Positions 1-47,680 of a stretch of DNA of 64,000 nucleotides are shown one piece after another; the stretch's first letter is position 1; the number at the start of each line of letters is the position of its first letter. The notes beneath the pieces are model-generated. The model saw only the letters and a list, made by a program, of their open reading frames with translations. It had not been told where the DNA came from and did not search any database. This DNA is from Cyanophora paradoxa CCMP329. Taxonomy: Eukaryota > Plantae > Glaucophyta. Both the position numbers and the translations under genes were made by a program. The DNA is taken from the NCBI GenBank assembly GCA_004431415.1, contig QPMI01000591.1:1-64000 (forward strand), read 5' to 3'.

Positions 1-1766
1 CATCACATCGGAGAAGTAGCCAAACCACAGTTCGGTCGGCGTGCCGGAGGGTCTCTCGAATTTGAACTGCACGCACGTCGTACGAGTTAATCCTGATTCC
101 TTTCTGTAAAAATCCATGTTATAGCTGCCGCACCTCCGCGAACGAAACGATGATGTCTGCAACCCCATCGTTGCTGTAGTTGTCGAACAGCACACCAAGC
201 GTATCAACCTTCGCGTTCACTCCGAAACGAGCTGACACCTTAAATCCAAGCTTATCCATGCACACGTATCCGTCCTCTTCCTCCTTGATAACGCAATGAA
301 CATTGTCTGCTATAAAGATAAGGCGCAATATGACGACTATGGAATCTTATCCATTTCTTCAGATTACATTTGACGCACATTCGCTGAACCTGTTTGAGTC
401 GCACTGTTTGTTGACATTCATGTAGTCCACTGCGGCGGCCTTGAAATCGGACACGATGTCGTAACGCATCATGACGAATGACGTGCGATCCATGTTCATA
501 ATTTTATGGGGAAGCCCGCTGAGACGTGAGTCCTAGCGCACGGGAATTGGTCACGGCGTGCGTATATGGTATCGAACAAACAATAAAATCAAGAGTGACC
601 GACCTCCTCATGCACTGATTCGAATATGATTAGACCTGCATTACCAGAGTTGATCTGGATCTCCTTGGCCAGATTGCGGTCTCGCGTCAATGGCCAAGCC
701 ATCTTTTCAGTCGCAGTCCCCTTCACCAGATGCCGAGCATTTTTGGAGGCTTGCATTATCAGGTACTGTTTCATGTGATCTTTGTCAGTATCCTGATATA
801 TCCCGTTAGAGTAACACGTAAAGTGCAACTCACCATTTCGTCCGTGTTGCAGCTCATGTTCAGTTGTTCGGTTATTTTGTTCACTTGATCGATGAGAGTA
901 TCTCCCTTCGAATTTTTTACCATGGCTCCGGTGAATATACGGAGCGGCACTTTGTCCCCAAGCTGCCTTGCGTAAGCTCCGACGGCAAAGTCCCTGCCCC
1001 GTTCGGCTTAACGTCATTGCGCACCTCATCTTCCAGTGTAGCACGGATGGTATCGCCTCCAGTCTTTCCAGTGATGGTGTGCATGTTCGCGATCCGCACG
1101 ACGCCATTAAAGTCTCTCCCCTCCTTCATTTCCGTGAACGTGCGCCCCACATTCACGATCATCTTCTTGACGGGCCTGCAAGATATCAGATTTTCCGACG
1201 ATTATCACGGATGGGGCCTAATGAGGGGTGGACCACGTACGACAGCATCACATTTTCCTTAGGCGCGCCATTTGCCGTGAGAGCTCCGGACCTACGCGGC
1301 GTCGGAATTCAGCGTAACATTTTTTAAACAATGTTTGCGCAATCTTGGACTGCGTACACTTTGTCAACGTCAGCAGTGTACAAGCCGCCATTCGAAGTGC
1401 GTGACGGCCCCGCCTCCGGAGCAGCAGCTGCGGCTGCTCCTTCCGATGGAGCGCCAGCGTTCATCCTGTTTATGCATTGACCGTCAGCTAAATTCCGGAT
1501 CATGTCGCCTCGGCGAGCGATTAAATGCAGACGCACCCCGTCAGCGCAACCTGCGCCGTGCCGCCCACCGGCTTGCTGGGCACCGGCGGTGACTCCGACT
1601 CGAGCTCGGGGTCGATGTCAGGGAGTTGTGACTTGCCGGCTGACTCGCCGATCTCAGGCTTCGACGGTGACGCGCCTACGGCAGACTTCTTCTTCTCGAG
1701 CACGCTGTCCGTCTTCTCCGCTGCAGCTGAGGCGGCAGCAGCAGCAGCCTTCGGAAGGCGAGCCAT
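1..1766 (-). CDS. Multi-exon protein with disordered N-terminus and probable tandem OB-fold (RPA-like ssDNA-binding) domains; runs off the left edge
   Basis: Spliced translation MARLPKAAAA...RTFTEMKEGRDFNGVVRIANMHTITGKTGGDTIRATLEDE|LGDKVPLRIF... and HCVIKEEEDGYVCMDKLGFKVSARF...ADIIVSFAE|FKFERPSGTPTELWFGYFSDVM. The L-x-D-x2-G-x2-hydrophobic strand pattern occurs twice. Fold assignment is inference. Confidence 0.45.
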
Positions 1767-1927
1767 TGCACGTCGACAGAAGCTCGAATGACGGGACGAC
1801 GAAAATTTCAAATTCAGAACTAACTCTACTTTCCCGATCGTTCACCAACACTCTCAGTTCACGTACGCCCCCCTCCAAAAAAATTAAAGTCTCCCCGAAC
1901 GGGCTCGAAGTGCTCAGCTTCCAGCAG

Positions 1928-4292
1928 ATGGGAAAGAGGCGACGACGTGTTGCGCATAGTTCCCACCTGAATGTAAATGTCGTGCGTACGCGTGCCGCTA
2001 TAGCTTGTGATCACATGCCCTGTCATAATCTGTTCATGGGAGATGGCAACCGCAGGTCAACATCTTATGTCTGCCGGACGAGTTACTCGCCAAGATAATT
2101 GCGCTTGCAAGCCAGCTCGTGGTCGGGACGGTGTTGCCCGGCGGCTGTTGCTCGTACGCCGAATCACTTTTATCTATGCCGGAGCATCCGTTGGAATCAA
2201 AGCGCATCGACCGCGTTGACATGCACGTGCTCGTCCCGCTCGGGCAAGTTTGTCGTCGGTTCAGAACCCTACTGCGGGCGCCGCGGCATTCTTCAGTCTG
2301 CAGACCGTGGAAAGCCGCCTCGGAAAGGCGGAACATCGTCTGGATGACTCGCCAATGCGTGCATTCGCGCGGCAGCGGCGGTGCCGGGAATTGAGGATGT
2401 CCACATGGAAATCTTACTGCTAGTGCGTCCCTGCGAGGTCGAGCATCCCATGAATCCAACACGCCGTTGCATCGCAGGACCGTCCTCCCAGATTCCAGCG
2501 GCCATACCCGCGGCCCACAGAAGTCGTCCTTGATAATCCAGTCCAAACTTGCGTTTTGACTCCGTTCGTCCGCTTCTCTCCGACTTCTCTGCGCGCCATC
2601 CGACTTGCCTTGGATGGGATGAATGGCTTTACCTACGTCTTCAAGCCGGAGAACGTCGCGTGCCTCAGCGATCCATCGTTCGTCAACCTCACCTGTCTCG
2701 ATCTAGATGCGCGCTACGGTTTGGAGCGCGATCAGATATCGCTAAGCCAGCCTGCGTTCGAATACCTGGCAACCAAGGGCCCTGCTCTCACAGAGTTACG
2801 GCGAGCATCCTGTCGGAGCCATCCTCTAGCGGCGGCCTGCTCCAATCGTCGTATTCAATGCATTTGACCTCCTGGCGAAAGGGCCCTTGAAGTACCTCCA
2901 TAAGCTGCATCTTCAATTCATATTCGGAAACTTGTATCCGGAGACAACGTACTTTGCCCCTGACGCCCTCCGCCCTCTCGTCAGCCTTCCCCTAAAATGT
3001 AAGTTCCTCCCCACTTCCCCCTTCGACCCCGTCCCCCCCTCCCTCCGCTTGCGTGCACAACACAGCCTGCCACCACTCCATTGCCTAGTATTTCTACGCG
3101 CCCCCGCACCCATCATCACCATTTTAATGTTCGCACCCGCACGATGCCGCAGCACTCTCCCTTGTGTTTTCTATCGGAGCGGACCCAGATGATGAAGACA
3201 ACGGTGAAGAGGAGGTCACGCTTCTCCAGGTCTCCCTCGAGCCGCTCGTACAGTTACTGACCCTCGAGCACCTCGCTTTGCGAACTCGCAACATCGCCGA
3301 CTTTGCCCCACTAGGCCGAATTACTGCCCTCAAGTGTGCGCATGTCCGGGTGCTCTCTCCAGCTCGCTTGCTACCCCTGCTGACAGCGCCTTCGCGCACT
3401 CAGCGCTGCAGCTCGGCGTTGCCGGTTCCAATGAGGTCGATAGCATACAAAGAGCCCTCAACGTCATCCCCGCGCTCACACAGCTCCAATCGCTTGTACT
3501 CGATGAGGTGGATGAGGACACTTTGCCATGGCCACTTGTCCCCCTGGCGCCCCGCCTCCACGCTCTCGACTTCGGTCAGCGTGGAGATGAGAACCAAGGT
3601 GGCGCCATGGAGAGCGTGATCGAGCGCTGCACAGAATTGCGAGTGAGTCCGCGCCACAACCCCTGCATTCAATCCATTCCAATCCCCGCTCCCCGCTCCC
3701 CGCTCGTTTGCAGTACTTGGAGATTGCGGTCAGCATTTGCTCCCAGATCAAACCCAGTGCCTGGAACGCCCTGAACAAGGTCCACACCCTTCATCTGCAC
3801 GGCTGGGATGGAGGCGCGGGATTTGGTTTGGAAACGCCCCCTTCGTCGTGGACGCAATTATGAAGGTGTAGCAGCCAGTGCCTTGTTTCTAAACCTTTAG
3901 CTTCCGACCCCGCCTCTCTGCTGACTCGCCCGCAGCTCATTGCGCAGTACATGACCAGTCTGCGCGAGCTTCACTTGGTCGAAATGAAGCTACCGGTACC
4001 TCTGGAGCCCGACGTCCTTGCTTCCTTCCGCTCTCGCCTTTGCCGCCTCCGGGCCGCATTGCGTGTGCGAGCCGCCGACGATGACCTCTCCAATGATCAG
4101 GCATGCAAGTTGCGGCAGGTGCACCCCGCACCCTCCAGTGCTATAGGGAAGCCTTCGCCCGTGACTCGGTCTGTGAGCATAGGATTTAGAGACCGCTCTC
4201 GGCGGCCTCAAGATCGCCGACCCGGACCTCCGATTCGGAACATTTGCACCGGCTACGCGTCGTCACTGAAGCCGTTGCCCCTCGCCCTATAG
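1928..4292 (+). CDS. F-box/LRR-like protein (multi-exon, ends approximate)
   Basis: F-box-like LLSMPEHPLE...VPLGQVCRRFRTLL. LxxLxL repeats NLTCLDLD, LEHLALRT, LQSLVLDE, LHALDFG, LRELHLVE. Confidence 0.55.
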
Positions 4293-4430
4293 CTATGCAT
4301 CTGCCCTCCAACGTCCTCTCACCTATGAACACCGCCCTCTGGACCCGTGCCGCTCCCCCCTATGTAGCCTGTAATTCTATACTTCATACACTATGATTGA
4401 TATTCGGATACACATCGAGAGTCGGCAGGC

Positions 4431-5224
4431 CTATGCCTGTTCTTGACTCGGAAATAACTGGATTGCCGTCTCAAGATGCTTGATGCTCGATCTTAAAAAA
4501 CTGCATGAACACCATGCGTGCACAGAGCTCTTTCTCATGTCAGAGCAACTATTTCCTGGTCGCTTGGATGCCAATTCATCAATTGCCTCCGTCAAAATTA
4601 CCATTTCGATCGATACCTTCTGCAGCCTCGTCAGGAGGCCGTTCATTCTTATAGAGTCCCCGTCCGAAATAGGAAGAATTGGGAATATCGGGGTCGTCAG
4701 TACTGCAATCAATACGGAAATGCAAGCCATCAATCTGATAGCAATTCATGCGGGCATGAAATTCTCGATTCACTTACTTGAGTCGTCACTGGTGCTGTCG
4801 CTGTCGCTGCCTTGCACCTCGCCATCCGCCATCTTACATGCCTTGCCTGCAATTTACAACGCCGCAACAATAGCAGCCGGTCAGTCGTTTTCAGATGCAG
4901 AGGTTTTACACAACGCCAGATCTGCACCCTCCGCACTCTGCCAGATTTCCGCCCAGTGGCACGACGGGCAATCGCTATCATCATCTCTCCGGTCTCCCTG
5001 CGCAGCCCGATGCGCGCATGGGCGTACTCGTTGGGCGATCTCTTCAATCCCGCCAGCAAATGCACACGCACCTCTGGTTCTGGCCGCTTGTCCGTTTGCG
5101 TATCATCAGCCGCTTCTTGAACTGCCTTACGTGCGCTTGTTGCTGACTCTGCCGACGTGTGTGTTCCTATGGGGGTCGAAGCCGTCTCTTCCTCGTTCGC
5201 TCTCGGCACTTCTCCGCTCTGCAT
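4431..5224 (-). CDS. Hypothetical multi-exon protein (acidic, one CxxC)
   Basis: ATG at 5224. GT-AG introns join MQSGEVPRANEEE...PEPE|GDRRDDDSDCPSCHWAEIWQ...; no recognisable family. Confidence 0.3.
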
Positions 5225-5308
5225 AACGCGCCGCTATTGTTTGGCCTCAGTGATCTCTCCTAGTGCTTGTACAACGGTCACTTTTACTCTTCGGGCCTGT
5301 ACCCTCGT

Positions 5309-7269
5309 ATGAGGGCGTCCGCGTCACAGCCCAAAATACCCAAAACCATTCCGTCGTCTCTTCCTTCCCAGTATCCTTCCCGACGCGAGCATCTGCCCCT
5401 GTGCTATCGCTCCGTCAGCGACACTTCCGAGAATAGCTGTCAGCAGTCTCTCTCCGTATATCCTGTTCCTCGGCGGCCATGTACGACTTGTACGATATCA
5501 CAGGCGCGATCAATCATCCTCGGCGAAAGCTAGCATCATATCTCGCGGCGCGCTTTAATCTGAGTGCCTTGTACAAGCCCACCACCACCGATCTATGTAT
5601 CGCGCCCACCGAGGTTCGCACACACGCATGTTCTATACTTTGCTTGCGCATCCGGTAAACACATGGTACTATAGCTAATGTCATGCGTGCTCCTACTCCC
5701 AGTTTTTACAGAGCGGTGATATGCTCGGAAGGGCCATTGACGATGGCTGCCGGGATCATGGGATCATTGGACCAGGTTTGCCTGTGATGGACGGCTTTTA
5801 TGCACACCCTGCGGCTTTCGGGAGCGTCTCCGCGACCACGCCTTAATTTCGTACCTTCCTTCTGACATACCAAGCTGCGTGTTCATATCAGGTCCGTCCT
5901 TCGCTCATCGTTCCATGCCTACGTATACATACATACGCATCCTCTCTACACGCACAGGTGGCCTCCCCTTCAAAGCCATCACGTGCCCGCCGATAGCCTA
6001 CCGAATGGCACTGTACGCATGCATGCGCGAAAACGTGAGCGCGAACCGTTCGTCCTGATAGTAGCCTGCAGGAACGATATCGACATCTACGTAAAAGCCT
6101 CGACCGTTGCAGAATTCACTCGCGTTGTCACCGCCTTCTACCAAGCTGCAGCCCGCGCCTCCGCAGAACGAGTCGCGCCTTACCTACCAAAGAATAAAAA
6201 CCGTGGATGTCTTCTGTGCACCTTTTGCCTACGGCGTCCAGATCATGGCCCCAGGGGTCCTACCTCTGCAGGTGCCTGTTACATGCAGAATATTCTGAAC
6301 GGTCTCATTTTGATTTTCAAATCTTGTTGCTCAGATCAGTGTCATGGGTTCGAATACTATTGAGCGTATAGTATCATCGTACGACCTCGCTGCATGTGCA
6401 ATCTACGTGCCAGGAGACGACCTTAGCCACCCGGTCGCAACGTTTGCAGCGTGTATGACCCTCATCACGCACACAATTCCCATCAACGTGGATTACCTGG
6501 GCCTCCTGCACCCATTCTACTACGTTGAAAATGGTCACGTATTAACCACGCATCATCCGTATTACTCCGTGCCCCGGATTTTGAAATACGTGCAAGACAC
6601 GGGAGCTGGAGTACGTACTCTCTCGCATACAATAAATACTACTGCTGGCCTCCGCGATCGCGTTCTTGCGTCATCGCTTTCAGGCATCGAAGACGTTAAC
6701 CCGCGATCAAGATCCGAACTCGAGTGCATAATGCCTCCTGCCTCCGCAGCTGGCGTCCTGCAACTACTTTGATGACACTCAAATGTTGTGCGCAGGAATC
6801 TGAGGGCGCGTCACCTGGATTGGATTGGTTGCGAAGGGGACACCGGTCTGCTTCCCTCAGGAGTGCACCCCGTGCGTTTCTATTTTATACGATCATCGCG
6901 GCTGGTGTCGAGTTCACCCGAAAAAGTTAATACTGTGTTTGCGGCCAGTTCATGAAGAAATTTGCGAACGTGCATGTGTACGCTGCTGGCGGTTACACAT
7001 GCGGCAGAGTTTACGCCTGGTACGAGAGGCTCCGACGTGACCTCATCAAGTTCTTCGCTAGGCGGCAGCTCACACACAACGGTCTGCCGCTTCTCACACA
7101 AGAGATTTACGATGCCTTCAACGCTGCATTCGACGCCTCGGTGGCAGCAAGGGAATCGGACCCCAACAGAGTACGTCGCTACGTACACTATTCCTGCCGA
7201 ACTCCTGCGACCCCCTGCTACTACAGTTCTTTCACTCCCCCCCAACCCCCAAGTAACTACAGCATGTGA
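5309..7269 (+). CDS. Pol-beta-superfamily nucleotidyltransferase-like protein (multi-exon, start uncertain)
   Basis: Spliced motifs CVFISG|GLPFKAITCPPIAYRMAL|NDIDIYVK (hGG...DhDh), then AYGVQIMAPGVLPLQ|ISVMGSNTIERIVSSYDLAACAIY and PRILKY. One junction near 6120-6170 needs an intron or frameshift. Confidence 0.6.
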
Positions 7270-7697
7270 TCTCTAAACCCTCCTTGCGGTGGTGATCGGA
7301 CCCATATTCTTCATGTGCGCATCTTCACGGGTGCGGCCGCGGTGTGGTAAGCTCTGCATTCGACGCCTCTGTTGCAGCAAGGGGATCGGACCCCGGCAGA
7401 GTTCTCTTCCGGCGGCTTAAGCTTACTATACTGTAGTCCAGGCCTAGTCAGCTAGCATAGTACGAAACATGTACATGTGAGGAGGGATCGAGGTAGTATG
7501 AGTGGATGATATTGGAATAGAAGTCAAGTGAAGCAAGCTGAGGGTAGCAAGTGCCAATGTGCGCATTCAATAAATACAGACAAAACTAAGTAGTAGAGCG
7601 CAGAATAGAAGGTGTCAGAGATAGGAAACAGTAATCGATACGAAACTGTGAACTGACTGCCATAACACGTATATGTAGTACGGCGCGCGTCCTTGCC

Positions 7698-8369
7698 CTA
7701 ATTCTGACCGACATCGTCGTACATTCCGTGGTACATATCATCATGCAGCGGCCATCCATCTGGATCCACATCAGGTCGATTTACGACGTGCTTGACGACC
7801 GTTCCATTCCACTTCATGTAGATTTCGGCCCACCGGCGATCGGGGTCCCAACTGCCAGCACAATCGAAGGCCTTTATCATCAAGTCGTACTCTGAGGTGA
7901 AGATGGGTTAATAGTTGATCATCATCCAAGATTACATGCTTACAGGTACCTCCATTACAGTCCGTAAGCTGAACGGACGCAATCACATCGTACGCAGAAG
8001 TATACTCGTTGTTACTCACGCGCAGAGCTGCAGGCCCAGGTGGTACTGCTACGATGGCGCCTGTGCAGGGATTCTTGATTATAAAAACGTCGGGGTCATG
8101 TGGCTCATGGCCTCCAGTACGGTGATGGAACCGCGGCCGCTGACTCTCACTGATTCAGAAATGTCGCGGTAAGAAGCTAAATCGAGATTCGGTCTCGCGT
8201 AAGAAGCAGCTAGCACTATATCGGATGTGGGCGACGTATCTGCGATGGCGCAAATCGCAGCATGCACTCGCATCAGCAGCGAACGGAGCAAGCACACGGA
8301 GAACATACCTCTCGATCGCTTCTTGGAACCGGAATCGAGTATGGGACGCGAAGTATTCGTCAACGACAT
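7698..8369 (-). CDS. Hypothetical multi-exon protein
   Basis: Exons DPDVFIIKNPCTGAIVAVPPGPAALRVSNNEY... and YDLMIKAFDCAGSWDPDRRWAEIYMKWNG...DVGQN*. 5' exon linkage is uncertain. Confidence 0.35.
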
Positions 8370-8797
8370 GCCTAGGCGTCTCTGCAAGAGTCAAGTCCGG
8401 CAATTAGGGGTACAGCATGCATTCCCGGCGCCGTGAACGACACCCCGTGCGCTACACGCGCAGGTCGTCGCATCGTTCATAGCGCGCTCATTAGCCAGCG
8501 CAATCTCCAGCTAGGCCAACCCACCGCTAAGCGCGAAGCAACGCGTACCGTGCACGGCGCGCTCCTTCGCCAACGCCAGCGCCAGCAAGGCGAACACAAG
8601 CGCTGCAACCGCTGCTCGGCGTACATTCGAAGCGCGCTCATTCGCAGGGCGGCTGATACCCCGGCTCGAAGTAAGCATGCTCATGCCCGATCCTCGACTG
8701 CCGTCTAAATAAAGACGACTTTTAACTTATATATTTCAACAGGTTCCGATTACTTGATCATGGCGAAAACAAAGCGTGCCATGGGATCTCACCTGGG

Positions 8798-9559
8798 ATG
8801 TTCAGAGGAACGATGCAGAGGATCGAGCAGCCACATGACTATAGAGGACCGATCCGTGACTATAGTCACTTCTCCGACGTCACTACTCTTCTGAGAAACA
8901 CACCGCCTGTTGATCGCATCATAATCGTTGAAGATGGAACGGTTCTGCAACGATTTCTGCAGATCGAGCCTATCCACATCTTCAGGCCATGGCAAGCCGG
9001 ACGTGAATTTGGTATTTCCCTTACGTAAATTTTCAACCTCTACTTCTTCACGTCTCACCACCAGACGCCTGCCAGCTATCGCTCGGGCACTCGATACGAA
9101 ATTCCGCCTGCATCTGTCCTGTCCCTACACATCAGAACGTATCAGAGTGCCAGTTCAATCCGTGTACTGCGTTCACCCGCACGTACGTGGTCGCATTCCC
9201 ATCATAAATTCCACATTATTCTTATCCCGACGCAGTGTTTCGATTTCAACGAGCACTTGATATTCTCCCTTCATAATGAAGATTGGTCAGCTATTCGTCC
9301 TGCACTCATGATCACGATCACAATGAATTCCTTTCCATAGGGAATGCCCATTCCAATTCTGCCAAAGACAAGCAGGTCTCCACGATCTCATCATTGACGA
9401 GTTCTTCAAGTCCATCCTTGATGGGGTCTGTGCCCGATTTACCTTTACATCTCGTAATTATTGACACCCTCATTCCAGACAACGCCTGCAGATCTCGCTG
9501 TCGAAATAGACAACACAGGAAGATGGCAGCCATGCCCTTCCGACAATATACCCGACTAG
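8798..9559 (+). CDS. Small stand-alone SP-RING (MIZ zinc finger, Siz/PIAS-type SUMO E3 ligase domain) protein
   Basis: Four short GT-AG introns (first 9025-9064) give LHLSCPYTSERIRVPVQSVYCVHPH|CFDFNEHLIFSLHNEDW|ECPFQFCQRQAGLHDLIIDEFFKSILDG|TTPADLAVEIDNTGRWQP. This matches the SP-RING pattern CP...RI..P....C.H..CFD...W.CP..C...L.ID.FF..IL plus the downstream VEI...G.W motif. Confidence 0.85.
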
Positions 9560-9662
9560 ATTAGAATCTCCAAGCAGGGCTCGGCCCCGCCCCACCCATC
9601 AGTGCATCACCCCGCCCGCCCTTCTCTGCCACATCCAGCCCCGCCCCGCCTTGCCCGCACCT

Positions 9663-9818
9663 CATTAAGATGCTTCAACCGAGCGCCCGTCATCAGTTAC
9701 ATATGGTGCCTAGGTGCAGCCCGGATAGCTATGAACGATCGAGCGGATAGAATACGTGGGACTGCTAGTGCACTTCATCGCCATGTGTCAATTCACATTC
9801 TGTAATCAGCAAGCTCAC
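9663..9818. repeat. Copy 1 of a diverged ~155-bp non-coding repeat
   Basis: Shares blocks ACATATGGTGCCTAGGTGCA, ATGAACGATCGAGCGG, TGCACTTCAT and CCATGTGTCAATTCACATTC with 16452-16611. Confidence 0.85.
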
Positions 9819-10028
9819 ACCGCTGCACCCCGGCGTCCGCCCCGGCCCTGCCGCAAAGGCTCCGCGCGTCGGGTCGCCTGTACGCGGCCGTAGCTCTTGT
9901 CTTCTGAGATGCCTGCTTGAGTACTGCAAATCATCAGTATTCGTCCCTCCCTCGGGCCCCTTTCAGTGTGCCGCTAGAGTCCTGAAGTACATCATGATTG
10001 CATTACAATGCGTTCTGGTGTACGCCCC

Positions 10029-11609
10029 CTATTTGGAGTCGGACGGCGCGTCGGATGAATGTAGCTGAAGTCGGAGGCAGCTGCAAACCAGGTCTTGTAC
10101 ATATGAAATGCGCGCTCGACTGCAGTCGATGTGCTGTCCCCATAAGGTGGGTATAACCCTGGTGCACGACCGTCATGTAACGCATGCCATCATGTAAGTG
10201 CTCACGCACTTAATTTCGTCGTCATGTTTCATCTCTAGTTTTTCCGGAGTATCCCCTTTCAGAAGCGGCCTCCCTTGGTACTCGAATTCAACTGCGTCAT
10301 ACCCTGCGAATACGTGCCTGTGGGGCATAATAACTTTATCCGTGAAGCGCCGCATCGTCTCTGAAAGGTGTTCGTAGGTCCTTGCGGAAACGACACACTG
10401 CGAACCAGCGTGTTACTGGTTCGCCTTCGTGCGCAGTTTATCGTTCATCGAATCGTCACCTTGTGCACATCACATGTGTCATGTAAAGTTCTATCATGCG
10501 TCGCCATCACAGTCATTTGCAGACACACCCTGCGGTACGGGCACGATCGTGAGCTTGCATCTCTTCATTCCCCCGAGCATCAACTCAACCTTCGTCTCGG
10601 TGGCAACCAGTACATTCCGGTCGATCGGTTCACCTTTCGTCCCTGCGATTCACACACAAACATCGGTACCGCCATTGTTTGATCGCAGATCTAAAATATT
10701 TCTGCGTGGTGTTCCACCATCTGCATGGTACGCTCTCCCTCGCTGCCCGTCATCCATACCTCCATAGCAGTCTCCTCGTCCACTCTGCTCAAGTGGAGAT
10801 AATCAGACCCGCGAATTTCTGATGTCCTTTCATTCAACGTACGCCTCAAACTCCTCCTCCCTGTGAATTGTTCCGTGAATCCATGAGTTCCCATCCTATA
10901 TGCATATGTACCACGCGCACCGCTTCAGCTTCTCCCCTTTGCCATCCATAACGTAGGTTATGAAGTCGCCGTCCTCTATCCCTACGGACTCGGGACAGTC
11001 GACAGGCCGTACTTGCAATTGTTTCCCTCCAACCACGAAAGCGCCTTTGGATAGGTTGAAGGTCTGGCAGAAATACTTGAAGTTGTCGTGAAAACATGAC
11101 GTTGGTCTAAACTGCACCCGAAGCTGCGCACGCTGCGACTTAATTACACATCATGCCTTGACACACGTCACTCGCGGCAACCTTCTGTCCAGAATGAGGT
11201 GCATGTATATGCACACGTATACTGGGACGTCGACGTCTTCATCGCGTCGGTCTCAGATCATGCCTCGGTTGACATGAACGACCACAGCACGTACTCATCG
11301 ATGTCTGCTTGCGGATGACGCTTATAATACCCATAAGGACGCGGAAACTCCGTTAATGTGCCGACGTCCCTGCGCCCTGCACGCTCCTCTCCGATTGTTA
11401 TCTCGTAGTTGACGTCCGGATCCGAATAGCGGGTGTCCTGCACAGGTACCATCGCACTCGAAGAGTACGACAATGGCTCATGTCCCACCTCTTCAAGCCG
11501 CGGGCCTGCGTATTCAATCAGGCGACGCTTTAGGGGCACTGTGCGGGCACGCGTTTCTCATCCGCCTACGTTTGGAAAGCAACCCTGTCTGTGCTGCTGC
11601 GTCCCCCAT
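10029..11609 (-). CDS. Tandem SUMO-like-domain protein (Rad60/Esc2/NIP45-like architecture), no C-terminal di-glycine
   Basis: SLD1: SIRVHIHAPHSGQK|LRVQFRPTSCFHDNFKYFCQTFNLSKGAFVVGGKQLQVRPVDCPESVGIEDGDFITYV. SLD2: VCLQMTVMA...K|CVVSARTYEHLSETMRRFTDKV...VEFEYQGRPLLKGDTPEKLEMKHDDEIK|VIPTLWG. Both fit the SUMO pattern F.FDG..L....TP..L.MEDGD.I. First exon is tentative. Confidence 0.75.
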
Positions 11610-11739
11610 CGCTTGTCGAAACGCCAATTGCACCCTGGCTGCCGTCAACGTGTCCGTGTCGGCTACTGTAAGCTCGCGTGCAGTAACGCAGGTTCGAACG
11701 CTTGTAGCACGTACCCCTAATTCGATCGGCAGTTACCTA

Positions 11740-12351
11740 ATGTCGAAACGCCAGAAGTCTGAGCCGACGGCGTCGATTAGCAACTCTGCTGAAAGCCCTT
11801 CTACCGCGACAGCAGCCGACCTGCTCCCCGTCGGGCAACCAGGGGTCAGCCACCACCGACGCAGGAAACAGCCGTGTAAAAAGAGCAGTCCAGTCCCGCC
11901 GACGGACTGGTTCAATGCGCATAATCGACGGTATAACTTTGAGCGTGAGTTACCACAGCTGTCTCCCGGCGAAATCCATCCGTCGAAGCGCACAGCCGTA
12001 GCTAAAAAAGCAGCGGCCAAAGCCCACTTTCAGCAAGCCTTAGCTGCTACGTCACCGCAGGCCGTTTTGCTTGCCGCTATTGCCTGTGCGGAGGCTCTTT
12101 GCGGAGAGCGCCTTGTCTGGTGCTGCGCCAACCAGCAAATGTCTAGCATGTGCGGTCAGTCATGCCCGGTGAAACTCAAGCTGGAGCAGGCGTGGACCTG
12201 GGTGAAAAATCTTCAAACCCGTGTGTACGAATTGGAGGATCTCGTGCGCTCTCACGGACCTCACGAGGGTTATGTATCGAAAGGCAATCGGGCCATCGAT
12301 AAACTCGAGCGGATCCAGGAAATTCTGGAGGCCTCATCTGACGATGAATGA
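11740..12351 (+). CDS. Orphan protein, paralog A (DWF.AH.RR.NFERELP motif, Cys cluster, C-terminal coiled coil)
   Basis: Open frame MSKRQK...SSDDE*, clearly homologous to 15756-16270. Confidence 0.7.
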   Translation: MSKRQKSEPTASISNSAESPSTATAADLLPVGQPGVSHHRRRKQPCKKSSPVPPTDWFNAHNRRYNFERELPQLSPGEIHPSKRTAVAKKAAAKAHFQQALAATSPQAVLLAAIACAEALCGERLVWCCANQQMSSMCGQSCPVKLKLEQAWTWVKNLQTRVYELEDLVRSHGPHEGYVSKGNRAIDKLERIQEILEASSDDE

Positions 12352-12597
12352 TCTCTCTATTTAATACACTAGTTGCCCACTGTCACTCGTGTCGAGCACA
12401 GTCGGTTGTCGAGTGATCATGATGACGATTTCGTACAAAAAGGCGCAATTGCTCTCAAACATTCGTCTCATGCACTCAGCGAGCTCGCCGTTGTGTACTT
12501 GAGAACACAATACAGGCATAACACCATCGAATTTGCGGGTTACATGCACTCCGGTGCGCCAGAGATACTGGTATAACCGTACGGCTCTTCTCTCTTT

Positions 12598-13105
12598 CTA
12601 GGTGCGCTCGCCGCGAATGCGACGGGCGAGCTGCATGTCCTTCGGCATGATTGTGACCCTGAGCACCATGCACCGATCAGAAATTAAGCACACATCCCTT
12701 CAGGCAACGCACCGCTTGGCGTGGATGGCGCAGAGGTTCGCATCCTGAAAAACGCCGACAAGATAAGCCTCGCTGGCCTCTTGCAGCGCGAGGACGCTCG
12801 ACGATTGGAAACGTTTATCCGTTGCGCCTAGATCGTGTGCGACCTCGAACACGAGCCGCTGGAACGGAAGCTTGCGAAGCAGGAGCTCCGTCGTCTTCTG
12901 GTATCTGCGAATCTCCCGCAGCGCGACAGTACCTGCTCTCCTCGTTCAGCCTCCCTAACTGCTTACCATAATTGGCATCCGCACCTGGACGATAGCGGTA
13001 AGGTCTCTTTCCCGGCGACTCGGTCTTCGTGTGCTTCTTGGCCTTGGGCGGGGCGGCCGGAGCGGCCTTGGCGGATTTCCGCGGCTTCTTCTTCACACGC
13101 GGCAT
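12598..13105 (-). CDS. Divergent histone H3 variant, 133 aa, 3 exons
   Basis: Exons 13105-12985, 12932-12713 and 12658-12598 with GT-AG introns of 52 and 54 bp. Translation: [133 protein letters not shown]. Confidence 0.95.
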
Positions 13106-13779
13106 GTCTGCCGGTGTACGCTGGATCGTGCCCTACTTTCGAAAGGGCAACTGTATTTATCCTAGCAACGGCACGAATTAGACCAACGGGGTACGCATCA
13201 TCGAGCGACTTTTCAAACCCCCATTTCGTTGCTCGCAATGTCAGGCGCGCATGCTGCTCGCAGCACCACCGTACCACGGTGAGGGGCACGAGATCGAAAT
13301 GTCATGATACCAAGCTAGTGCTGGAGCCAGCCAGTGTGAGCTATAACTTCAATGCCATGGAACATAAATCTCAAGCGTCAACCATCCACGTAAATTGCCC
13401 TCGATTACACTAGAAAAAATGCAATCCCAATGTATCTATACTACCGGTGACATCCCAAGAAAACAGAACTACAGTACTGCAAATTGTTAGTAAGGGCCGG
13501 TGTGAGTTCGAATACTCATGAACATCAAAAGCTCTAGATCTAGAGCAGTACCGCCACCATTTCCGCGGTCTCACAGTCGGCAATGGCATCGACGAGCACT
13601 GCCGAATTCCGAACATCATATAGAGACTTCGACACGCACCTATATGCATGCGTACAAAATATACGAGATACCTTTCAGGGATCGACTCAGTTGAAGGATG
13701 CCAGGCTTGTTAACAATGATTTCGCGGGCCTGCGTGGAAGACGAGATGCCTTGTCATGAGGCCGTTCTTACGGGCGCGT

Positions 13780-15340
13780 TTATGATGAAAAAGCACTAAC
13801 GATGGTGCTCGTAGAATTGAGGAGCTCCAGGATGCTGACTGAATCGGCCTGGGACGATGCGCAGCGTACGAGCAGGAAGTCGATCGTGTCCCGGCACACT
13901 GCATGTGCAGATAAGAGTGACGTAATTGTACTGGTCTGCCGGCCGCATGGACCGACAACTGACGCACTCCGGAGATCACCGATTCTCAGGTGAGAAGTGT
14001 CCTTCTGCAGAGGCATCGGTATGGCAATCGCAAGTGATCACATAATTATAACCACTCATGTGTCTAGTAAAGAGCGGCAGAGAGGGCCGGAAACTAAGAA
14101 TGCTCACCTCACTGGAAGTCTTGCCCGTCTTCGTACTCGCTGGCGTTCACATCAGACGGCACGACGAAATAAAAGAGGCGGGCAGGGATAACATACCCAT
14201 CGGAGGAATGTAGGGGGACGGCCGATCGCGATGCTTTGCAACCGGAGTTGACGATATGTTCCGACCGGGGTTGACGATGGGGTTGACGTAGTAACTGAAA
14301 TGGTGCAAGGCTGCAATATCCAGGGGATGATTGACTGATTGTTGCGTCTCCCCTCCTTGTCCTACGAGTTTCCGCAGAGCGTCCACTTCCCATGTAACGA
14401 TGAAGGCGCCGCCATCAAGCTTGGCGAGTTTGCTGGAAATCCTCCGCATCCAATCCAGCTCCCGCTCCACGCTTGATCTCGCGTCTCTGATTGCCGCGCA
14501 CACAGCATGTGTGATGGCCGACGCGTATTCTGCGGACCCTCCGTCCCCTTGCTGTGGGCAGTGCACGTGTCAGCCACATACGGGGGCCGAGACGCTGCGT
14601 AAAATATTAATGCCAGTGTCCTAACCGTAGGAGTTGGCGACGGCGAGAGCATCATCCTGCGAAGCCCAAGCACCGCTCGGTCTGACGAACACAGGTGGTC
14701 TTGCGTGAAGCTCTCGATTCTGCTTTTTATGGCACGGAGCTCATTGGTGAGCTGAGCCTCGATGAAAGCATGCGCAGACGTCCCGCGGTAGAAAATATCA
14801 ATCGCCTCGCTGGCCTCCTTGAGCGCTTCCTTCATCCTTGCTCCCAGCTCTCCACCCTCCGACGTGCAGAAGAGCACATGCCCCTGTGCCCCACTCGTCA
14901 TCAACGTTATCTCTTCCGAAATCCTATATATCATAACCTACATACCACAAAGCCGCTTTCGATTGCGCGGATAGGACTCGTTGCGTTCTGCTGGCCCTCC
15001 TCCCCGCACACAGGGCAGATGCCTCGGGCAAGCTCCGATATGATCATCTTGTCGGTCGGCTTCATCGATGCACAGGCCGTTGGTACGCTGCGGAACGCAT
15101 CCAGGGGTCGCCCGGCCGGTGCGATAACCGTGCCCGAGCCCCTGTGCATGCTGCCGCCGGCGGCAGCGCTTTCCCCTCCCATGGTCCCGCCTGGACGACC
15201 GGCCGGCGTTGCGCATGTCGCTGTTGCTCCTGCGGCCGCCGCCCGTTCGACGTTGCTGCTGTCCGCACTGCCACGGCCAGACAAGGCCGGTTTCCCCTGC
15301 TTCTTATGCTTCCCTTGCGGCGTTCTTGTCTCCTCCACAT
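13780..15340 (-). CDS. Hypothetical multi-exon protein (CPVC motif, helical core)
   Basis: Consecutive minus-strand ORFs 14931-15338, 14362-14934, 14147-14566 and 13780-14016, separated by intron-like gaps, with protein-like composition. No family recognised. Confidence 0.5.
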
Positions 15341-15755
15341 TTCAACCGGTTGCTGGTGTTCGACGACACTGCATCCCTACGTTTCCGAAACCCGGCTGAG
15401 TTGCACTGCGGCAACCTGGCAACGTACGCAGCGATCCTCCGAGCAGCACGCACCTCGTCAGCTGCGAGTTGACACGCTTGAACCTCGTTCCGTTTCTCCT
15501 CATTCCAGTGCGCAAGCTCGATTGCCTGCCTCTGCGCGTAGAGGACGCCCAGTAAGAACGATTTCGGGCAGCGCGTGCTTGACTGCTAGAGTGCGACTCA
15601 CCCGCCGCAGAACCTGGTAATCGTCTTCGTTCGACATCTGAGTTGTGCCCTGTAAACGGAGCCGTCTAGCCTTCCGTGTTTTTGCCTTAGGACGCCGTGC
15701 GCTCCGGGTACCCTGAAAATCAGGACCCACGTTATAAACTCCGGATTCGACAGCA

Positions 15756-16270
15756 ATGGCAAAACGTGCCAAGACCGGGCCATCGTTCGAAGCCTCCGGT
15801 AGCTCGGCACATCCGCTAGCGCCCCATCGGCAATCAACCGCAACCGCCGCGGACACCATGAGCACAAGACGCCCACTGTCGTTCAGCCAAACTTAGACGA
15901 CTGGTACGACGCTCATTCGAGACGCTTTAATTTCGAGCGCGAGCTGCCAGCGCTGGCTCCTGGCCAGGTGGACCCTTCAACCCGCCCCGTCGAAGCGAGG
16001 AAGGCTGCTGCTTCCGCACTTTTCCAGCAAGCTCTAGTTGAGGAGTCGCCTGCCGCTGCCCTCCGCTTAGCAATCGCCGGATCTGAAGCTCTCGCCGGGG
16101 ATCGACTTGTTTGGTGCAACGCCATCCCGCGCACAGCTGCCGCACCATGCGGCCCGTCGTGCCCTGTGAGGACCAAGCTGAACGAGGCATACGGATGGGT
16201 GGCGGAGCACCAATCTCGCGTCGTAGAATTGGAGGACGCCCTCCGGAGCCACCTCCGGCAGTCGCAATAA
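15756..16270 (+). CDS. Orphan protein, paralog B; frame break near 15800 (indel, intron or pseudogene)
   Basis: MAKRAK... start. Downstream frame DDWYDAHSRRFNFERELPALAPGQVDPS...GDRLVWCNAIPRTAAAPCGPSCPVRTKLNEAYGWV...ELEDALRSH aligns with paralog A. Confidence 0.65.
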
Positions 16271-16451
16271 CCATATAATTACATATATATCAAAGGCCGA
16301 CCTTGCCTTTGGCACACCCAATCAGATGCAGAAAATTGCAACTTTCGATTTACCTGCTCTTCCCAGCCTACCTGTACTTTCATATTGCTTTATATCCTTA
16401 ACTGTACCGTTTCATTGTCCAGTATTACTCCGGCAAGCTCAATTAAGTGTG

Positions 16452-16611
16452 CATTAAATAACTTCAACCGTTCCCAGCCTCTGTTACATATACATATGGT
16501 GCCTAGGTGCAATCCGGCGAGCCATGAACGATCGAGCGGCTCGGCTACATGGGAAGGCTTATGCACTTCATTTCCATGTGTCAATTCACATTCCGCAATC
16601 ACCAGGCTCAC
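16452..16611. repeat. Copy 2 of the diverged ~155-bp non-coding repeat
   Basis: Same conserved blocks and same orientation as 9663-9818. Confidence 0.85.
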
Positions 16612-16640
16612 TTAAATTCCGCGAGTACTACCGTTCGTCT

Positions 16641-19600
16641 TCAAACGTCGCGGCAGGCATAGTGGCGCTTGATTTCTGCCACGGTATTTGCATCCTGGCA
16701 TCTGCCGATAATGAGCCCATCAGTACATGTCATATATAGGGATACGGAGTTGGAAGGGGGGGGGGGGAGGGGGGGGTACGGGAAGGGCCCACGTCTGTTT
16801 TGCCTTGTCCACGAGTAGCGCCACCTGCACAGAAACAATCCCGATACTTATTACCGTCTTTCTGCAGGTTGCTGGCGGATGAACGCACATGTTTGTCAAA
16901 TGAGAAGAGGACCGCCTCGAGTCCGTAACTGAGACCCGCGTCGCTGGCGCCGTCGAGGCGCATCCCCTCCTTTTTCTCAAACTCCACCAGCCGGCCTCGC
17001 AGCTCCTTCGCCGAGTGCATCAGCAGAGCTCGACCTGTGAAGGACAACAGTTGCAGGCACTTCAACCTGCGAAGTTAAAATGTTAATATTAGATGTATTC
17101 AGGATTGTCTAAAATATCTAATGGACAACGTACTCTGCCGAATCCCCTTCAAGTGAGAAGGTTCCTTTCATCCACCTGCTGACTTCTGCGCGTGTCCACC
17201 CCAACACCAGGGCAGGATCCGGTGCCGGTACAGCCGGTTGGGCCGCATCTCCCCTCCAGGAGGCGCATTGGAACCCTCGGAATGCGTGCTGGCACCTGCA
17301 TGTACACAGTCCATGTCGGCGTACGCAAAGAATGAGCAGATTCGATCATCGCTTACCCTCCTGCATATGCTCGACGTCCCCTGCTCGTGAACGCTTCAAC
17401 GTATACAATACGCTCGAAGAGTACAATTCTTCACCGACCTGCTGCAGCCGTCTTTGATTTCTTCCGAGTACGCGGAGGTGAGGCACTGTCCTCTTCTGCT
17501 TCAGATGCCTCCGTCTCCTTCTCGGTCCCTTCTGCATCTTCCTCTGAGACAGATTATCGTAAGAACCCTTATCACAACCCACGACTCCTTTACTTTGTCT
17601 CGCCGCTTTACCTTTTCTGATGTGGTTCTTCACATGATGATCAAATGCTTTCTGCCTCACAAACGTGTGCCGACAGCGCGAACATCGAAGGCTCCGTTCC
17701 TCAACCTTCCCGGACTCCACGATTGCATCCTCTACGTTGGGTGCGTCAGCGTGTCAATGCGTGCACCTCGTCTTTTATTGCATCATTCGTTTCGGCTGTG
17801 TTGTTCGCACCTGGCAGGCCGTCGCAACACGTAACATGCTTCCCTGCTGCTACGTAGATCTTGAAACAATCGGGACACTTGTACTTTCTCCCCGCCGGCG
17901 GATGGCTTGATTCTGTACGCAGGTCAGAGGGGCGGTAAGAGTAGGGGTTCAGGGCTGCCGGCGGAGGGCGCTGGCGAGCCGCTAGAAGATGCACCCTCGG
18001 GTACACCATCTCCTCCTATCGATTCAGCGCCCTCCGCCTGCTTTTCCGAGGGAGAGGCGATGCTCTTATCTGCGTCCGCCACGTCAAACTGTGCCTCGTG
18101 ATCGATCTCGACTAAGGCTTCGGGCCGGCCGACGACGTACCCGTTGAATACTTGGAAGCGGATCCCCTCGCCCCGCCCCTTGACTCGCCGTCCCCCTGCT
18201 CTGGATCCTTGCCTGCAGGCAGGTCGGATCTACCGAGCTCGAGCGGGGGTACGAAGTGGGTAGATCGCACCCTTTGGAGCGGTGACCGCGGATGCACCTC
18301 CCTCCCTAGCAGATGGCCGTCCCGTCAAAGGCTCTCTACCCTTGCCTGCGCCATAATTAATAGACATAAAACTTGTAGCGGTACATGCGCCTATCCGCGG
18401 TGCACCTGTCCGAGTCCCCTGAGGGGAGCTCGATGCCCCCTCCGGTTTCACTTCCGCCGACGGCCGTTGAGAAATATTCGACGGGGATGTGCTGCAGCTG
18501 AGCGGTGCTGCCGGTCTTGGGCCGCTCGCACTTTTCTTGCTCGCCGACGATGCTGAACTTTTCGATGCCTCTGACGACATGCCTGCGACCATGACCTCCT
18601 TGATAAGCATGATCCTTGCACCGGCGCCGGCAAAAGCATATATCAGGTATATCATATGTGCACCACTTCGGGCCGCCAGGGTAGCGATAGGGCTGGATGC
18701 CCGCTCTGCCTTCACGAAAATCTTAGGCGGGGTTGACCTGTCCGCAGCTGCTGACCCCGTGCCGCTCCCAATTCTCGCGCTTGGCTGATGTGCTGCCTTC
18801 GGCGGTCCTCCTGTTCGTCCACAGTCAGCGTCGGCGCTCTAAGAACATGCGCAAGATCGCACCACCCCTGGCTTCCCGCACGCCCTGTGCTTGGTTGGGC
18901 TTCAGGTCCCCAGACGCCCTCTTAACACCGACTGATTCCCCTGCCGCCCGTTTCGGGCCGCCTGCCGAACCCAAGAGTTAGACTTGGACGCTCCACTTTA
19001 TCAAACCGCAGTCACCTGTGTCGTCCCCTTCCATCCCCGCATCCAAATGAGCGTCGGTGGAGATCGATCCGCTAGGTAAGATGCCCGTCGATGTCGTAGT
19101 TCCTGCCGCAGTGTCTGCCGTCTCGCGCGCAGCAGCAGCGATCGATTCATCATCGTACGTACGCTGCGGCAACTTTCCGCCTTCCGTTCGCGCTCCGACG
19201 TACGCGCGCCTGTTATCCACGAGGTCCGACGCTGCTTCGTTCTCTGCTAGTTAATATGGATTCATCGATTCCGTCGCCTACCTTAACCTTCCTACCTTCG
19301 TCTGTTCCGCCCGTCGACGTCGGCTCCGCGGACGGCGACGTCGGCTCCTCGCGCGGCGTGATCTCAGTCTTCACTGGCGCTTGCGGAATGAAGACCAACT
19401 CGTCGATGTCTACCACTGAGAATGCGGTCGTACGAGGGCGCCCTGTATATGCGGTGCGCGCTCGGCGCCGTTGCCCGGGACCGCACCCTCATCATCAGCA
19501 GTTGCCGCGCTTCGCCTTTCCTCATCGCGCGCTTCACGTCGACGAGCTCCTGCTTCGGCTGGCCATGGTTAGTCCGAAATCATCGCTCCCATCGTCAGCG

Positions 19601-19768
19601 TTCTCACCATCATCGACGCCCGGCGTGTCCATGCTGTTCACTGGTTCTTGCGCAACGTCCTGCGCAACTTCTAGATCTGCTCGTCACATGTCAGCCTCGG
19701 AACGCCGACGGGCGTCTGCGCCAACACCACCACACACCCGGGAGGACCGTGCCTGAAGCGCTATCCAT
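16641..19768 (-). CDS. Long multi-exon low-complexity protein with zinc fingers (ends approximate)
   Basis: YKCPDCFKIYVAAGKHVTCC (about 17825-17885) and C2H2 LRCSRCRHTFVRQKAFDHHVKNH (about 17620-17690). Ser/Ala/Pro-rich upstream exons with GT-AG boundaries. Confidence 0.55.
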
Positions 19769-20357
19769 GCCACGTTCTTCCGCTCGACAGGCTCCCGCTT
19801 CCCCTGCCCGCGTGATGAAGACTCAGCCGCGCTCCCCGCTTCTGACCGGTCCTGTTATACACGTACCCCTCAGGGTACGAACGACCGTGCCCGACGGTCG
19901 ATCGTGTACATAAGCCCTACCCCTCACGAAGCCATTTATCCTATACCTCTCATTATCGAAGTGTCGTATCCACGGGTAACCTTCCGCTTTACCCATCCAT
20001 CCCTAGTCCCGACCATATATGCCTTCATATTGTCTCAAGTCGATTTACATCTAGTGTTACCCGGGCCCGTTAACCAAACTATATATTAATGGTAATGCAG
20101 ATCGTGCCGGGTAGCTATAGCCAATAGGTCTAATTACTATTACCCATTTCCCAGGACCTGATTCAGACCCGAGGCTGCACTGCCACGGGGCAGGACTGTT
20201 TTACAGGCACTGGGGAAGCGGCCCCAATTGCAAGTTGGCTGAGAACTTGGCTCGATGAGCCTCGATCCCAACGTTAACGTTCAATCATTTGAGTGGTTAA
20301 ACGTTTTTGAACCGACGGCCGCGGCCGCCGCCGGCCCGCGCGCCGGCGGGTCGCCGG

Positions 20358-21035
20358 TAGGGGTGCGGCTTGCCGGCCAAAAAGTCGGCTTAAGCCAAGC
20401 CAAGCCCCGGGCCCTCGCGGTCAAGCCAAGCCAAGCCGGCCGGCCGGCCGGCCCAAGGGCTTGGCCTCCCGAGCGGGTCAAGCCCTTGGCCGGGCTTACG
20501 GGCCAGTTACGGCAAGCCTAAGGGGGGGTACCGTTCCGAAGGCCCTTGCACCGCAGCCCAATGCTTATATTTGGCTTCGAATTCACGAAGAAACGCATGT
20601 ACATATACTCTTATATAATAGCAATCGCCAACGCGCGCGTGTGGCACGCAGGCGCCAGCCGCACCGTGGCACTAGTACTAGTACTGGGGCTGGCCATGGC
20701 CGGTGCGCGGGGCGGGCCGGGGGGGAACGTGCATGCGCACGTGTGCACACGCGCGCAGGCTGCCGGCGCCGTTGAATTCGAAATTAAAAATTGAATAAGA
20801 TTCATATGTTAGTTAACGTTGCCGTCGCATGCTTATATCTTAAGCTTATAATCAGCTCCGATTCGAATGCGCTGCAGGCGCCCAGCTGCGTCCGGCACCC
20901 CCCTCCGACGCCTCCCCCCCCCTCGCCGTTCAGGGCTTGAGCCGGCTTGAGCCGGCCAAAAGCCAGGCAAGGGCTTGACCTCCCAGCCCGGCTCAAGGGC
21001 TTGGCTCAAGGGCTTGCCTGCAAGCCGCAGGCCTA
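20358..21035. mobile_element. hAT-type MITE
   Basis: TIRs TAGGGGTGCGGCTTGC / GCAAGCCGCAGGCCTA (14/16), perfect 8-bp TSD GTCGCCGG on both sides, subterminal CAAGCC/GGCTTG repeats. Confidence 0.9.

Positions 21036-30325: not shown

Positions 30326-30360
<35 letters not shown>

Positions 30361-34442: not shown

Positions 34443-34473
<31 letters not shown>

Positions 34474-47639: not shown

Positions 47640-47680
<41 letters not shown>

Follow-up and report, generated by a model that had tools for sequence, protein, structure and literature searches.

Cargo-bearing giant transposons are known chiefly from fungi, and records of histones on mobile DNA come chiefly from viruses. Starships, found in ascomycete fungi, are defined by a tyrosine-recombinase captain as their first gene. 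Elements of the piggyBac and CACTA types possess terminal inverted repeats with TTAA or a short target-site duplication and encode a DDE transposase, and Helitrons terminate at the 3′ end in a hairpin followed by CTRR and are inserted between A and T. Here we describe a block of genes from the glaucophyte Cyanophora paradoxa CCMP329 that shares traits with several such systems. It occupies the left end of the window, by which we mean the 64,000 nt stretch that was analysed (assembly GCA_004431415.1, contig QPMI01000591.1, positions 1–64,000), and its features are as follows.

Gene A, 1..1766, minus strand: putative tandem OB-fold protein of a Cyanophora-only family; nine exons in the window, ~150 aa missing off the left edge; four introns in RNA-like contigs, homologues on five C. 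paradoxa contigs.
Gene B, 1928..4292, plus strand: F-box (Pfam F-box-like, E 3.9e-5) and probable LRR protein, the LRRs by eye; exon model uncertain.
Gene C, 4431..5224, minus strand: orphan of ~190 aa; gene model, with an RNA-like contig over 4411–4702.
Gene D, 5479..7256, plus strand: Pol-beta-type nucleotidyltransferase-like (GG...DxD by eye), common to sister subfamilies.
Gene E, 7700..8684, minus strand: orphan with hydrophobic N-terminus and no Pfam family; RNA joints 7891–7950 and 8239–8309.
Gene F, 8760..9545, plus strand: small stand-alone SP-RING protein (MIZ/PIAS-type; Pfam zf-MIZ); RNA-like contig 8743–9006.
Gene G, 9697..11609, minus strand: multi-exon, one supported SUMO-like domain (Rad60-SLD, E 7.8e-4), possibly more.
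Gene H, 11740..12351, plus strand: intronless orphan, paralogue of K; RNA-like contig 11749–12095.
Gene I, 12598..13105, minus strand: histone H3 variant of 134 aa (Pfam Histone, E 1.3e-25); spliced in three of four RNA-like runs.
Gene J, 13540..15637, minus strand: multi-exon orphan, common to a sister subfamily; RNA joint 15375–15453 and exon contigs.
Gene K, 15756..16270, plus strand: orphan paralogous to H; its reading frame is broken close to the start, perhaps through an assembly error.
Gene L, 16484..19996, minus strand: long low-complexity protein; Cys/His zinc fingers and SAM-like C-terminal stretch, both by eye.
Candidate right end, 20176..20357, no strand: last multi-copy contig stops at 20,176; GAGTGG followed directly by TTAA at 20,291–20,300.
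hAT-like MITE, 20358..21035, no strand: 8-bp target-site duplication GTCGCCGG; high depth; first of a repeat pile at 20.3–24.5 kb outside the gene block.

The GC content of positions 1–20,305 is 0.549 versus 0.685 at 24.6–53 kb, and GC3 is 0.62 in the block (1,058 codons) versus 0.86 in the host (869 hand-picked codons). These values bear out the lower-GC island described in an earlier note on this DNA, and our 12 tightly packed gene models within the same coordinates agree with its count of at least 12. The genes are mostly intron-rich and of eukaryote type. The CpG observed/expected ratio (1.11 vs 1.08) reveals no CpG depletion and says nothing on methylation, and searches for tRNAs and Rfam families found none.

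The block is open at the left edge of the window, where gene A is cut, and its left end lies outside. On the right, the abrupt end near 20.3 kb proposed earlier stands as an edge defined by composition only, with GC climbing past 20,310, but the best single GC change point falls at ~24.1 kb and read depth brackets the end no more closely than between 20,176 and 23,899, an interval containing a pile of MITE-like repeats. The GAGTGG-TTAA sequence, in a region with four TTAA inside 250 nt, could fit a CC- or CACT-type transposon end (piggyBac/CACTA-type), whose partner is missing from the window. As a Helitron-like 3′ end, the same region offers a 5-bp stem at ~20,212–20,227 and CTGA at 20,239 with G as the next base; the folding z score of this hairpin is −1.7 and 14 of 200 shuffles are as good.

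Evidence of transcription comes from four runs that we treated as RNA-like: none is recorded as RNA and their RNA nature was a guess, but spliced joints are seen in them. Among the 15 joints listed for their contigs, which have 50 more, 14 are clean and correspond to GT-AG introns of 52–89 nt (mean 66, GC 0.50). For genes A, I and J, the spliced transcripts match the window sequence. The seven RNA joints in gene D derive from a copy ~5% diverged, and relative to this expressed copy the window copy has 1-nt indels; the window copy of gene J also carries a 1-nt indel, at 15,311. The distinct intron style claimed for the block holds against core host genes (13–17 CCCCG motifs per kb of intron versus 2.3 in the block) but not against the host genes at 48.6–58 kb, which at 3.9 per kb are also poor in C-rich motifs.

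Protein domains were sought with single exons as Pfam queries, and the curated cut-off was passed by Histone alone. The H3 variant reported earlier is thus confirmed: gene I shares 58 of 72 residues (81%) with H3.2, with a rewritten N-tail that has no match in PDB and one extra residue in loop 1. Centromeric H3 (CenH3) is recognised by a divergent tail, a longer loop 1 and changes at conserved Q, F and T sites. Gene I has the T to A change and the altered tail and loop 1, but it keeps Q and F, and a CenH3 would typically be less similar to canonical H3.2 than the 81% seen here. The SP-RING claim also has profile support: gene F matches zf-MIZ (E 1.2e-4, or 1.7e-5 with the exon alone) and possesses the full Cys/His pattern, spread over three exons. 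The tandem SUMO-like domains of gene G are reduced to one, whose best PDB matches are SUMO2/3; the second has no Pfam or PDB match and 107 of 1,000 shuffles score equally well against the first. Proteins of the Rad60/Esc2/NIP45 group have two SUMO-like domains in tandem; in gene G one is supported and the second is not detected.

Several other assignments survive in part. The F-box of gene B is upheld by Pfam and its LRRs by eye, and a pairwise comparison of the F-box exon with the F-box gene of the host at 59.3 kb reveals no similarity. The nucleotidyltransferase motif of gene D is visible by eye but has no Pfam match, and the zinc-finger motifs, also seen by eye, have weak Pfam matches (E 0.025–0.044); the SAM-like stretch of gene L found no Pfam support with single exons. 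The putative OB-folds of gene A show a strands-helix-strands pattern, but AlphaFold pLDDT is 31 for the whole protein and 36 for the first domain, and that predicted domain has no Foldseek match at E ≤ 0.001, only non-significant OB-fold matches; with VIA-align the best Z is 4.7, chiefly to PX domains. The duplicated orphans are real, H and K being identical at 73 of 137 residues, and the last intron and exon of genes L and G are 83% identical. An H2A-like reading of this common last exon was dropped for want of Pfam support (L exon scanned). A weak search among longer proteins found no homologue of gene J and gene D exons, and four forms of orphan H had no exact match in the collection searched.

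Read depth indicates that the block is repeated. In four DNA runs dated 2012–2024 we compared island contigs carrying 0–2 substitutions with GC-matched flank contigs, and in all four the contigs nearly identical to 9.6–18.7 kb lie at 3.58, 3.99, 3.86 and 3.78 times flank depth. The block thus appears to be present in about four near-identical copies, a figure estimated from contig depth and not a true copy number, and the steadiness of the ratio across runs fits integrated copies. A variant with a 901-bp deletion in gene L (18,730–19,630) has a depth of 112.6 versus 447.6, a ratio of 3.98, or about one copy in four, and the deleted stretch lies at 0.75–0.82 of its neighbour's depth in three of the four runs. 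Depth is uneven along the block, at ~10x over 6.2–8.9 kb (gene D is also ~10x), 6x over 8.9–9.6 kb and 4x beyond.

Sister copies are also evident. Among 1.84 billion representatives searched, relatives of gene A occur in C. paradoxa only. One set, on tig00020516, 20876, 20781 and 20597, is 75% identical to the window copy and 98–100% identical within itself, and a more distant copy (48–56%) lies on tig00020629; dispersal over separate contigs is seen for this sister subfamily and for gene A only. A contig at depth 630 connects the last part of gene D with fragments of gene J (joints 7116>14455>14846>15449), and this points to a sister block with a different gene order. Gene D copies differ at 27 synonymous versus 9 non-synonymous codons (pN/pS ~0.11), which shows that the gene is, by this codon measure, under purifying selection. 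Single-copy genes, which the earlier note had named as evidence against a mobile element, are therefore not what we find, given the ~4x depth and the sister genes A on four contigs.

Lower GC, roughly four copies and the sister copies together suggest a giant jumping element, so far undescribed, of which the block would be one arm. This arm is likely the right one, and the element likely an intron-rich, DNA-transposon-like unit of more than 20 kb that was recently copied and has more divergent sister subfamilies. The copies very probably arose by transposition of some mobile element, and probably of a transposon-type one. The earlier mobile-element claim is sustained in part, by multiple copies and the dispersed sister genes A but not by any mobility or viral hallmark gene in the window. 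Hallmark scans used ORF sets of 56, 25 and 13, plus 10 ORFs against PHROGs; they found no transposase, recombinase, helicase, Rep, polymerase or capsid in the ORFs scanned within the window, with sensitivity limited by short exons. Nor did we see an empty site, a target-site duplication, a terminal repeat or a left end for the block. Neither a RepHel (HUH Rep and Pif1 helicase) in these ORFs, beyond which the element continues leftward, nor a tyrosine-recombinase captain on the right side, in gene L or the ORFs as far as 24 kb, was seen. The mobilising enzyme would be encoded left of the window or act in trans.

One alternative, which we consider improbable, is an intron-rich endogenous DNA virus of mirusvirus, mriyavirus or Nucleocytoviricota type that was integrated several times; the block would be its arm of accessory genes, and its hallmark genes would lie to the left, outside the window. 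A virus would suit the close gene spacing, the lower GC, the numerous orphans, the histone and the nucleotidyltransferase-like gene; giant endogenous viral elements (GEVEs) have been reported from C. paradoxa (PMC12344493), mriyavirus-related regions from a glaucophyte assembly (bioRxiv 2025.04.19.649669), and intron-rich mirusviruses exist (PMC12768974). In the visible 20 kb, however, no capsid, packaging ATPase/terminase or PolB was seen, and PHROGs yielded no credible family among the 10 ORFs compared. The three of eleven non-histone genes that were tested (A, a D exon and a J exon) all lack a relative in 2.9 million viral contigs, gene D has no phage relative, and gene A has none in JGI metagenomes. 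Although H3 is encoded by 24 IMG/VR loci, the best is 79% identical to gene I, none is closer to it than H3.2, and none lies with another island gene. Published GEVEs are moreover described as hypermethylated (PMC12344493), whereas block genes are transcribed.

We assign a similarly small probability to a cluster of rapidly evolving host genes that lacks its own mobility machinery and was multiplied through segmental duplication or by hitch-hiking with the neighbouring MITE pile. The patchy depth also fits piecemeal duplication, the border is a repeat pile, and there are internal duplications (H and K, and the last exon common to G and L); host genes at 48.6–58 kb have similar low-GC short introns, and F-box/LRR genes are expanded in the species (e.g. 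59.1–61.6 kb). Yet about four copies show near-zero divergence across 9 kb, gene A exists in three divergence tiers on five contigs, core genes are conserved but reordered, and GC3 differs as given above, all of which is more readily explained if a self-contained unit was copied repeatedly.

If the block is indeed an arm of a transposon-like element, its cargo may have a role in its persistence: by acting on chromatin, its genes for the H3 variant, SP-RING, SUMO-like, F-box and zinc-finger proteins would allow the element to stay transcribed and copyable. In C. paradoxa, methylation of repeats is reported, as is the silence of most methylated genes (PMC12344493), and a putative anti-silencing cargo fits the transcription of block genes in such a species. 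It is conceivable, at somewhat less than an even chance, that the mini SP-RING and SUMO-like proteins mimic the SUMO-dependent silencing of the host or draw it away, that the F-box protein eliminates one of the host's silencing factors, and that nucleosomes of the element carry the H3 variant as a mark. Bolder, and in our estimate doubtful, is the reading of a new Archaeplastida class of giant transposon, a Starship counterpart that is still multiplying and uses a private chromatin kit to secure permissive chromatin over its own copies in a heavily methylating host. The kit so envisaged would comprise its own H3 variant, a mini SUMO E3, a SUMO mimic, an F-box protein and a SAM/zinc-finger protein.

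If true, a recently copied, transcribed glaucophyte element of more than 20 kb would extend giant transposons to the plant supergroup and offer a culturable system for asking whether selfish DNA can supply histone and SUMO tools to counter silencing by DNA methylation, in a species whose genome, RNA and methylome data are already published. In the literature that we searched, this element is not described; supplements to PMC6704402 and bioRxiv 2025.04.19.649669 may annotate these contigs, and the contig names are absent from one supplement of PMC12344493.

Compared with described systems, the block resembles Starships in its large multi-gene cargo with orphans, its several subfamilies and its composition unlike that of the host, but no captain is seen in the window and the cargo is of chromatin/SUMO type. 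Helitrons are likewise large and move by copy-and-paste; they take up genes, and some encode RPA-type OB-fold ssDNA-binding proteins (as outlined in PMC6431247), whereas no RepHel is seen in the window, the OB-fold of gene A is putative and no convincing hairpin-CTRR end is found. Low-GC, gene-dense inserts are typical of the GEVEs described from this species in PMC12344493, and the piggyBac-virus fusion Teratorn, which according to PMC6431247 can be multi-copy, recalls the TTAA at the candidate end; unlike both, the block has transcribed, intron-rich genes and, among the genes tested, no viral hallmark or viral best match. A functional analogy exists with VANDAL Mutator-like elements, transposons that encode their own anti-silencing factors (VANC; PMC5735166, PMC10398659), although VANDALs carry one or a few such genes, whereas the block holds a histone together with a SUMO-pathway set.

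The leftmost block of the window (1-20,305) is compositionally distinct, transcribed, selectively maintained and present in several copies. Twelve genes (A-L) can be modelled in it, in keeping with the earlier note's reading of at least 12 tightly packed genes, and the low GC described there is evident both overall (0.549 in 1-20,305, 0.587 in the repeat pile at 20.3-24.6 kb and 0.685 in 24.6-53 kb) and at third codon positions (GC3 0.62 over 1,058 island codons versus 0.86 over 869 host codons chosen by hand). All 14 RNA-supported island introns are GT-AG and 52-89 nt long (mean 66); the genome-wide mean given for C. paradoxa is 86 bp (PMC6704402). CCCCG occurs at 2.3/kb in the island versus 13-17/kb in core host introns, where C-rich motifs are typical. 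Since 48.6-58 kb is likewise poor in this motif (3.9/kb), the different intron style proposed earlier holds against the core host genes and is not unique to the island.

Elsewhere in the window, core host genes (28,800-36,570; 43,000-48,100) apparently have, by eye, many non-GT (GC, other) 5' splice sites and C-rich introns. Perfect tandem duplications at 37,048-38,011 (482-nt period) and 38,910-39,289 (124-nt period) may be genuine or may be artefacts of assembly. An SppA-like protease gene (by eye) has its last exon (47,969-48,091) repeated 10.7 kb downstream at 58,635-58,757 with 90% identity; between the two exon copies lies a gene of lower GC, possibly another insertion, that combines NTPase (AAA_16), pentapeptide-repeat and WD40-like parts.

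With single exons as Pfam queries, Histone (E = 1.3e-25) was the sole match above its cut-off; F-box-like (3.9e-5), zf-MIZ (1.7e-5, single exon) and Rad60-SLD (7.8e-4) fell below theirs. Joining three exons of gene F gives a complete SP-RING Cys/His pattern. The Rad60-SLD match favours one of the tandem SUMO-like domains claimed earlier; the second was looked for without confirmation, as were the OB-folds. Gene D has GG and, 16 residues on, DxD, a motif from which we take the product to be a putative Pol-beta-type nucleotidyltransferase; no library searched confirmed this identity. The second exon of the H3 variant (gene I) matches H3.2 at 58 of 72 residues and its loop 1 is longer by one residue; its tail has no PDB match, and it shows only part of the features of CenH3. 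A DNA contig of about two-copy depth aligns over the second H3 intron position (12,643-12,713) with other letters between, and probably stems from H3 genes of the host or from a sister variant. The last intron and last exon of genes G and L (9,698-9,818; 16,491-16,611) are 83% identical, and this exon codes for a short basic peptide at the C-terminus; together with the paralogous orphans H and K, the shared segment points to an old duplication inside the block. Public contigs carry one extra base at frame breaks in the window (RNA-like contigs at 8091, 15311 and 17250; DNA contigs at 8091 and 8770), so some of these breaks are probably assembly errors or copy-specific.

The stretch is present in 20 of the 24 runs listed, all under one organism label. 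RNA evidence comes from four runs guessed to be RNA, from at most three studies, whose contigs cover 29/30, 30/30, 22/30 and 8/30 bins. Fifteen of the 65 splice joints, those listed, fall in genes A, D, E, I and J. Listed RNA pieces of A, I and J differ from the window at 0-1 positions; those of D and E derive from a copy with about 5% divergence. Of 40 differences listed, the 37 that lie in four exon stretches of gene D with a safe reading frame were used: 27 codons changed synonymously and 9 non-synonymously, an approximate pN/pS of 0.11 among the differences listed.

In four DNA runs, contigs matching 9.6-18.7 kb (0-2 substitutions) have depths of 456, 382, 76 and 15.6, and exact-match flank contigs (22.6-23.9 kb, GC 0.43-0.53) have 127, 96, 19.6 and 4.1, an excess in every run (ratios 3.58, 3.99, 3.86 and 3.78). 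GC bias has likely raised the ratios to a GC-rich host contig (5.4-6.9). In run X2 a variant without 18,730-19,630 is at depth 112.6 (447.6/112.6 = 3.98), and this interval falls to 0.75-0.82 of neighbouring depth in three of four runs, with no break in the fourth. We thus arrive at about four copies of 9.6-18.7 kb, only an estimate because the depth of a contig does not count copies directly, though two independent calibrations agree. At 80% identity the depths add up to about ten-fold over genes D-E and six-fold over F, a region in which the majority allele is 2-5% off the window; one contig at depth 630 joins the end of D to pieces of J and another, at 862, holds short pieces of G. At 6,200-9,600 the window copy departs by 2-5% from the DNA-run majority allele, and 9.6-18.7 kb is near-identical from copy to copy; the window copy may be a mosaic, or gene conversion or assembly mixing may account for the pattern.

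Gene A, the putative OB-fold gene, has relatives solely in EukProt entries of C. paradoxa, and none outside that species among 1.84 billion representatives. A sister set on four contigs shares 75% identity with the window exon and 98-100% identity among its own members, and a fifth contig carries a relative at 48-56%. With the window copies, these sequences thus fall into three or more tiers of divergence, and two of the tiers have multiplied recently.

Composition shifts at about 20,310; the last multi-copy contig listed stops at 20,176, and from 23,899 the sequence is covered by a long unique contig. MITE-like repeats are nested between 20,358 and 24,500:

20,358-21,035, hAT-like MITE with 8-bp target-site duplication GTCGCCGG
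21,101-21,652, second MITE-like repeat with ends TAGGGTTGCCG/CGGCAACCCTA
22,421-22,575 and 23,101-23,254, 155-nt repeat pair of very high genomic depth

GAGTGG followed by TTAA at 20,291-20,300 might mark an end like those of piggyBac or CACTA elements, and a weak hairpin-CTGA might mark a Helitron end, each a single end indistinguishable from chance.

The block is real, multi-copy and probably mobile. We hold with good confidence that it is a mobile element of some class, copied as a unit as we infer, and we lean towards the transposon type; a mobility enzyme encoded outside the window would copy it as one unit. An endogenous virus, the other origin the earlier note entertained, is kept as an unlikely reading because GEVEs (PMC12344493) and mriyavirus-like regions (bioRxiv 2025.04.19.649669) are reported in glaucophyte assemblies, the former in C. 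paradoxa. Genes A, D and J have no relative among viral contigs, nor gene A among metagenome contigs, and the 24 viral loci encoding H3 (37-79% identity) contain no other island gene. The window ORFs scanned include neither mobility nor viral hallmark genes, and multiplication by plain duplication we think improbable.

For the preferred mobile element, we tentatively propose that the cargo may counter host silencing. SP-RING E3s and SUMO-like domains take part in silencing that depends on SUMO and in the function of Smc5/6; F-box proteins target proteins for degradation. In C. paradoxa CpG methylation is 32%, repeats are methylated and methylated genes are mostly silent (PMC12344493); the block genes, in contrast, are transcribed. 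Literature searches turned up no account of this element and no transposon described as having such cargo (supplementary data may bear on the point). Plant VANDAL elements are a precedent for anti-silencing carried by a transposon (PMC5735166, PMC10398659). While membership in none of Starship, Helitron or VANDAL can be claimed, by analogy with these the block resembles a giant cargo transposon.
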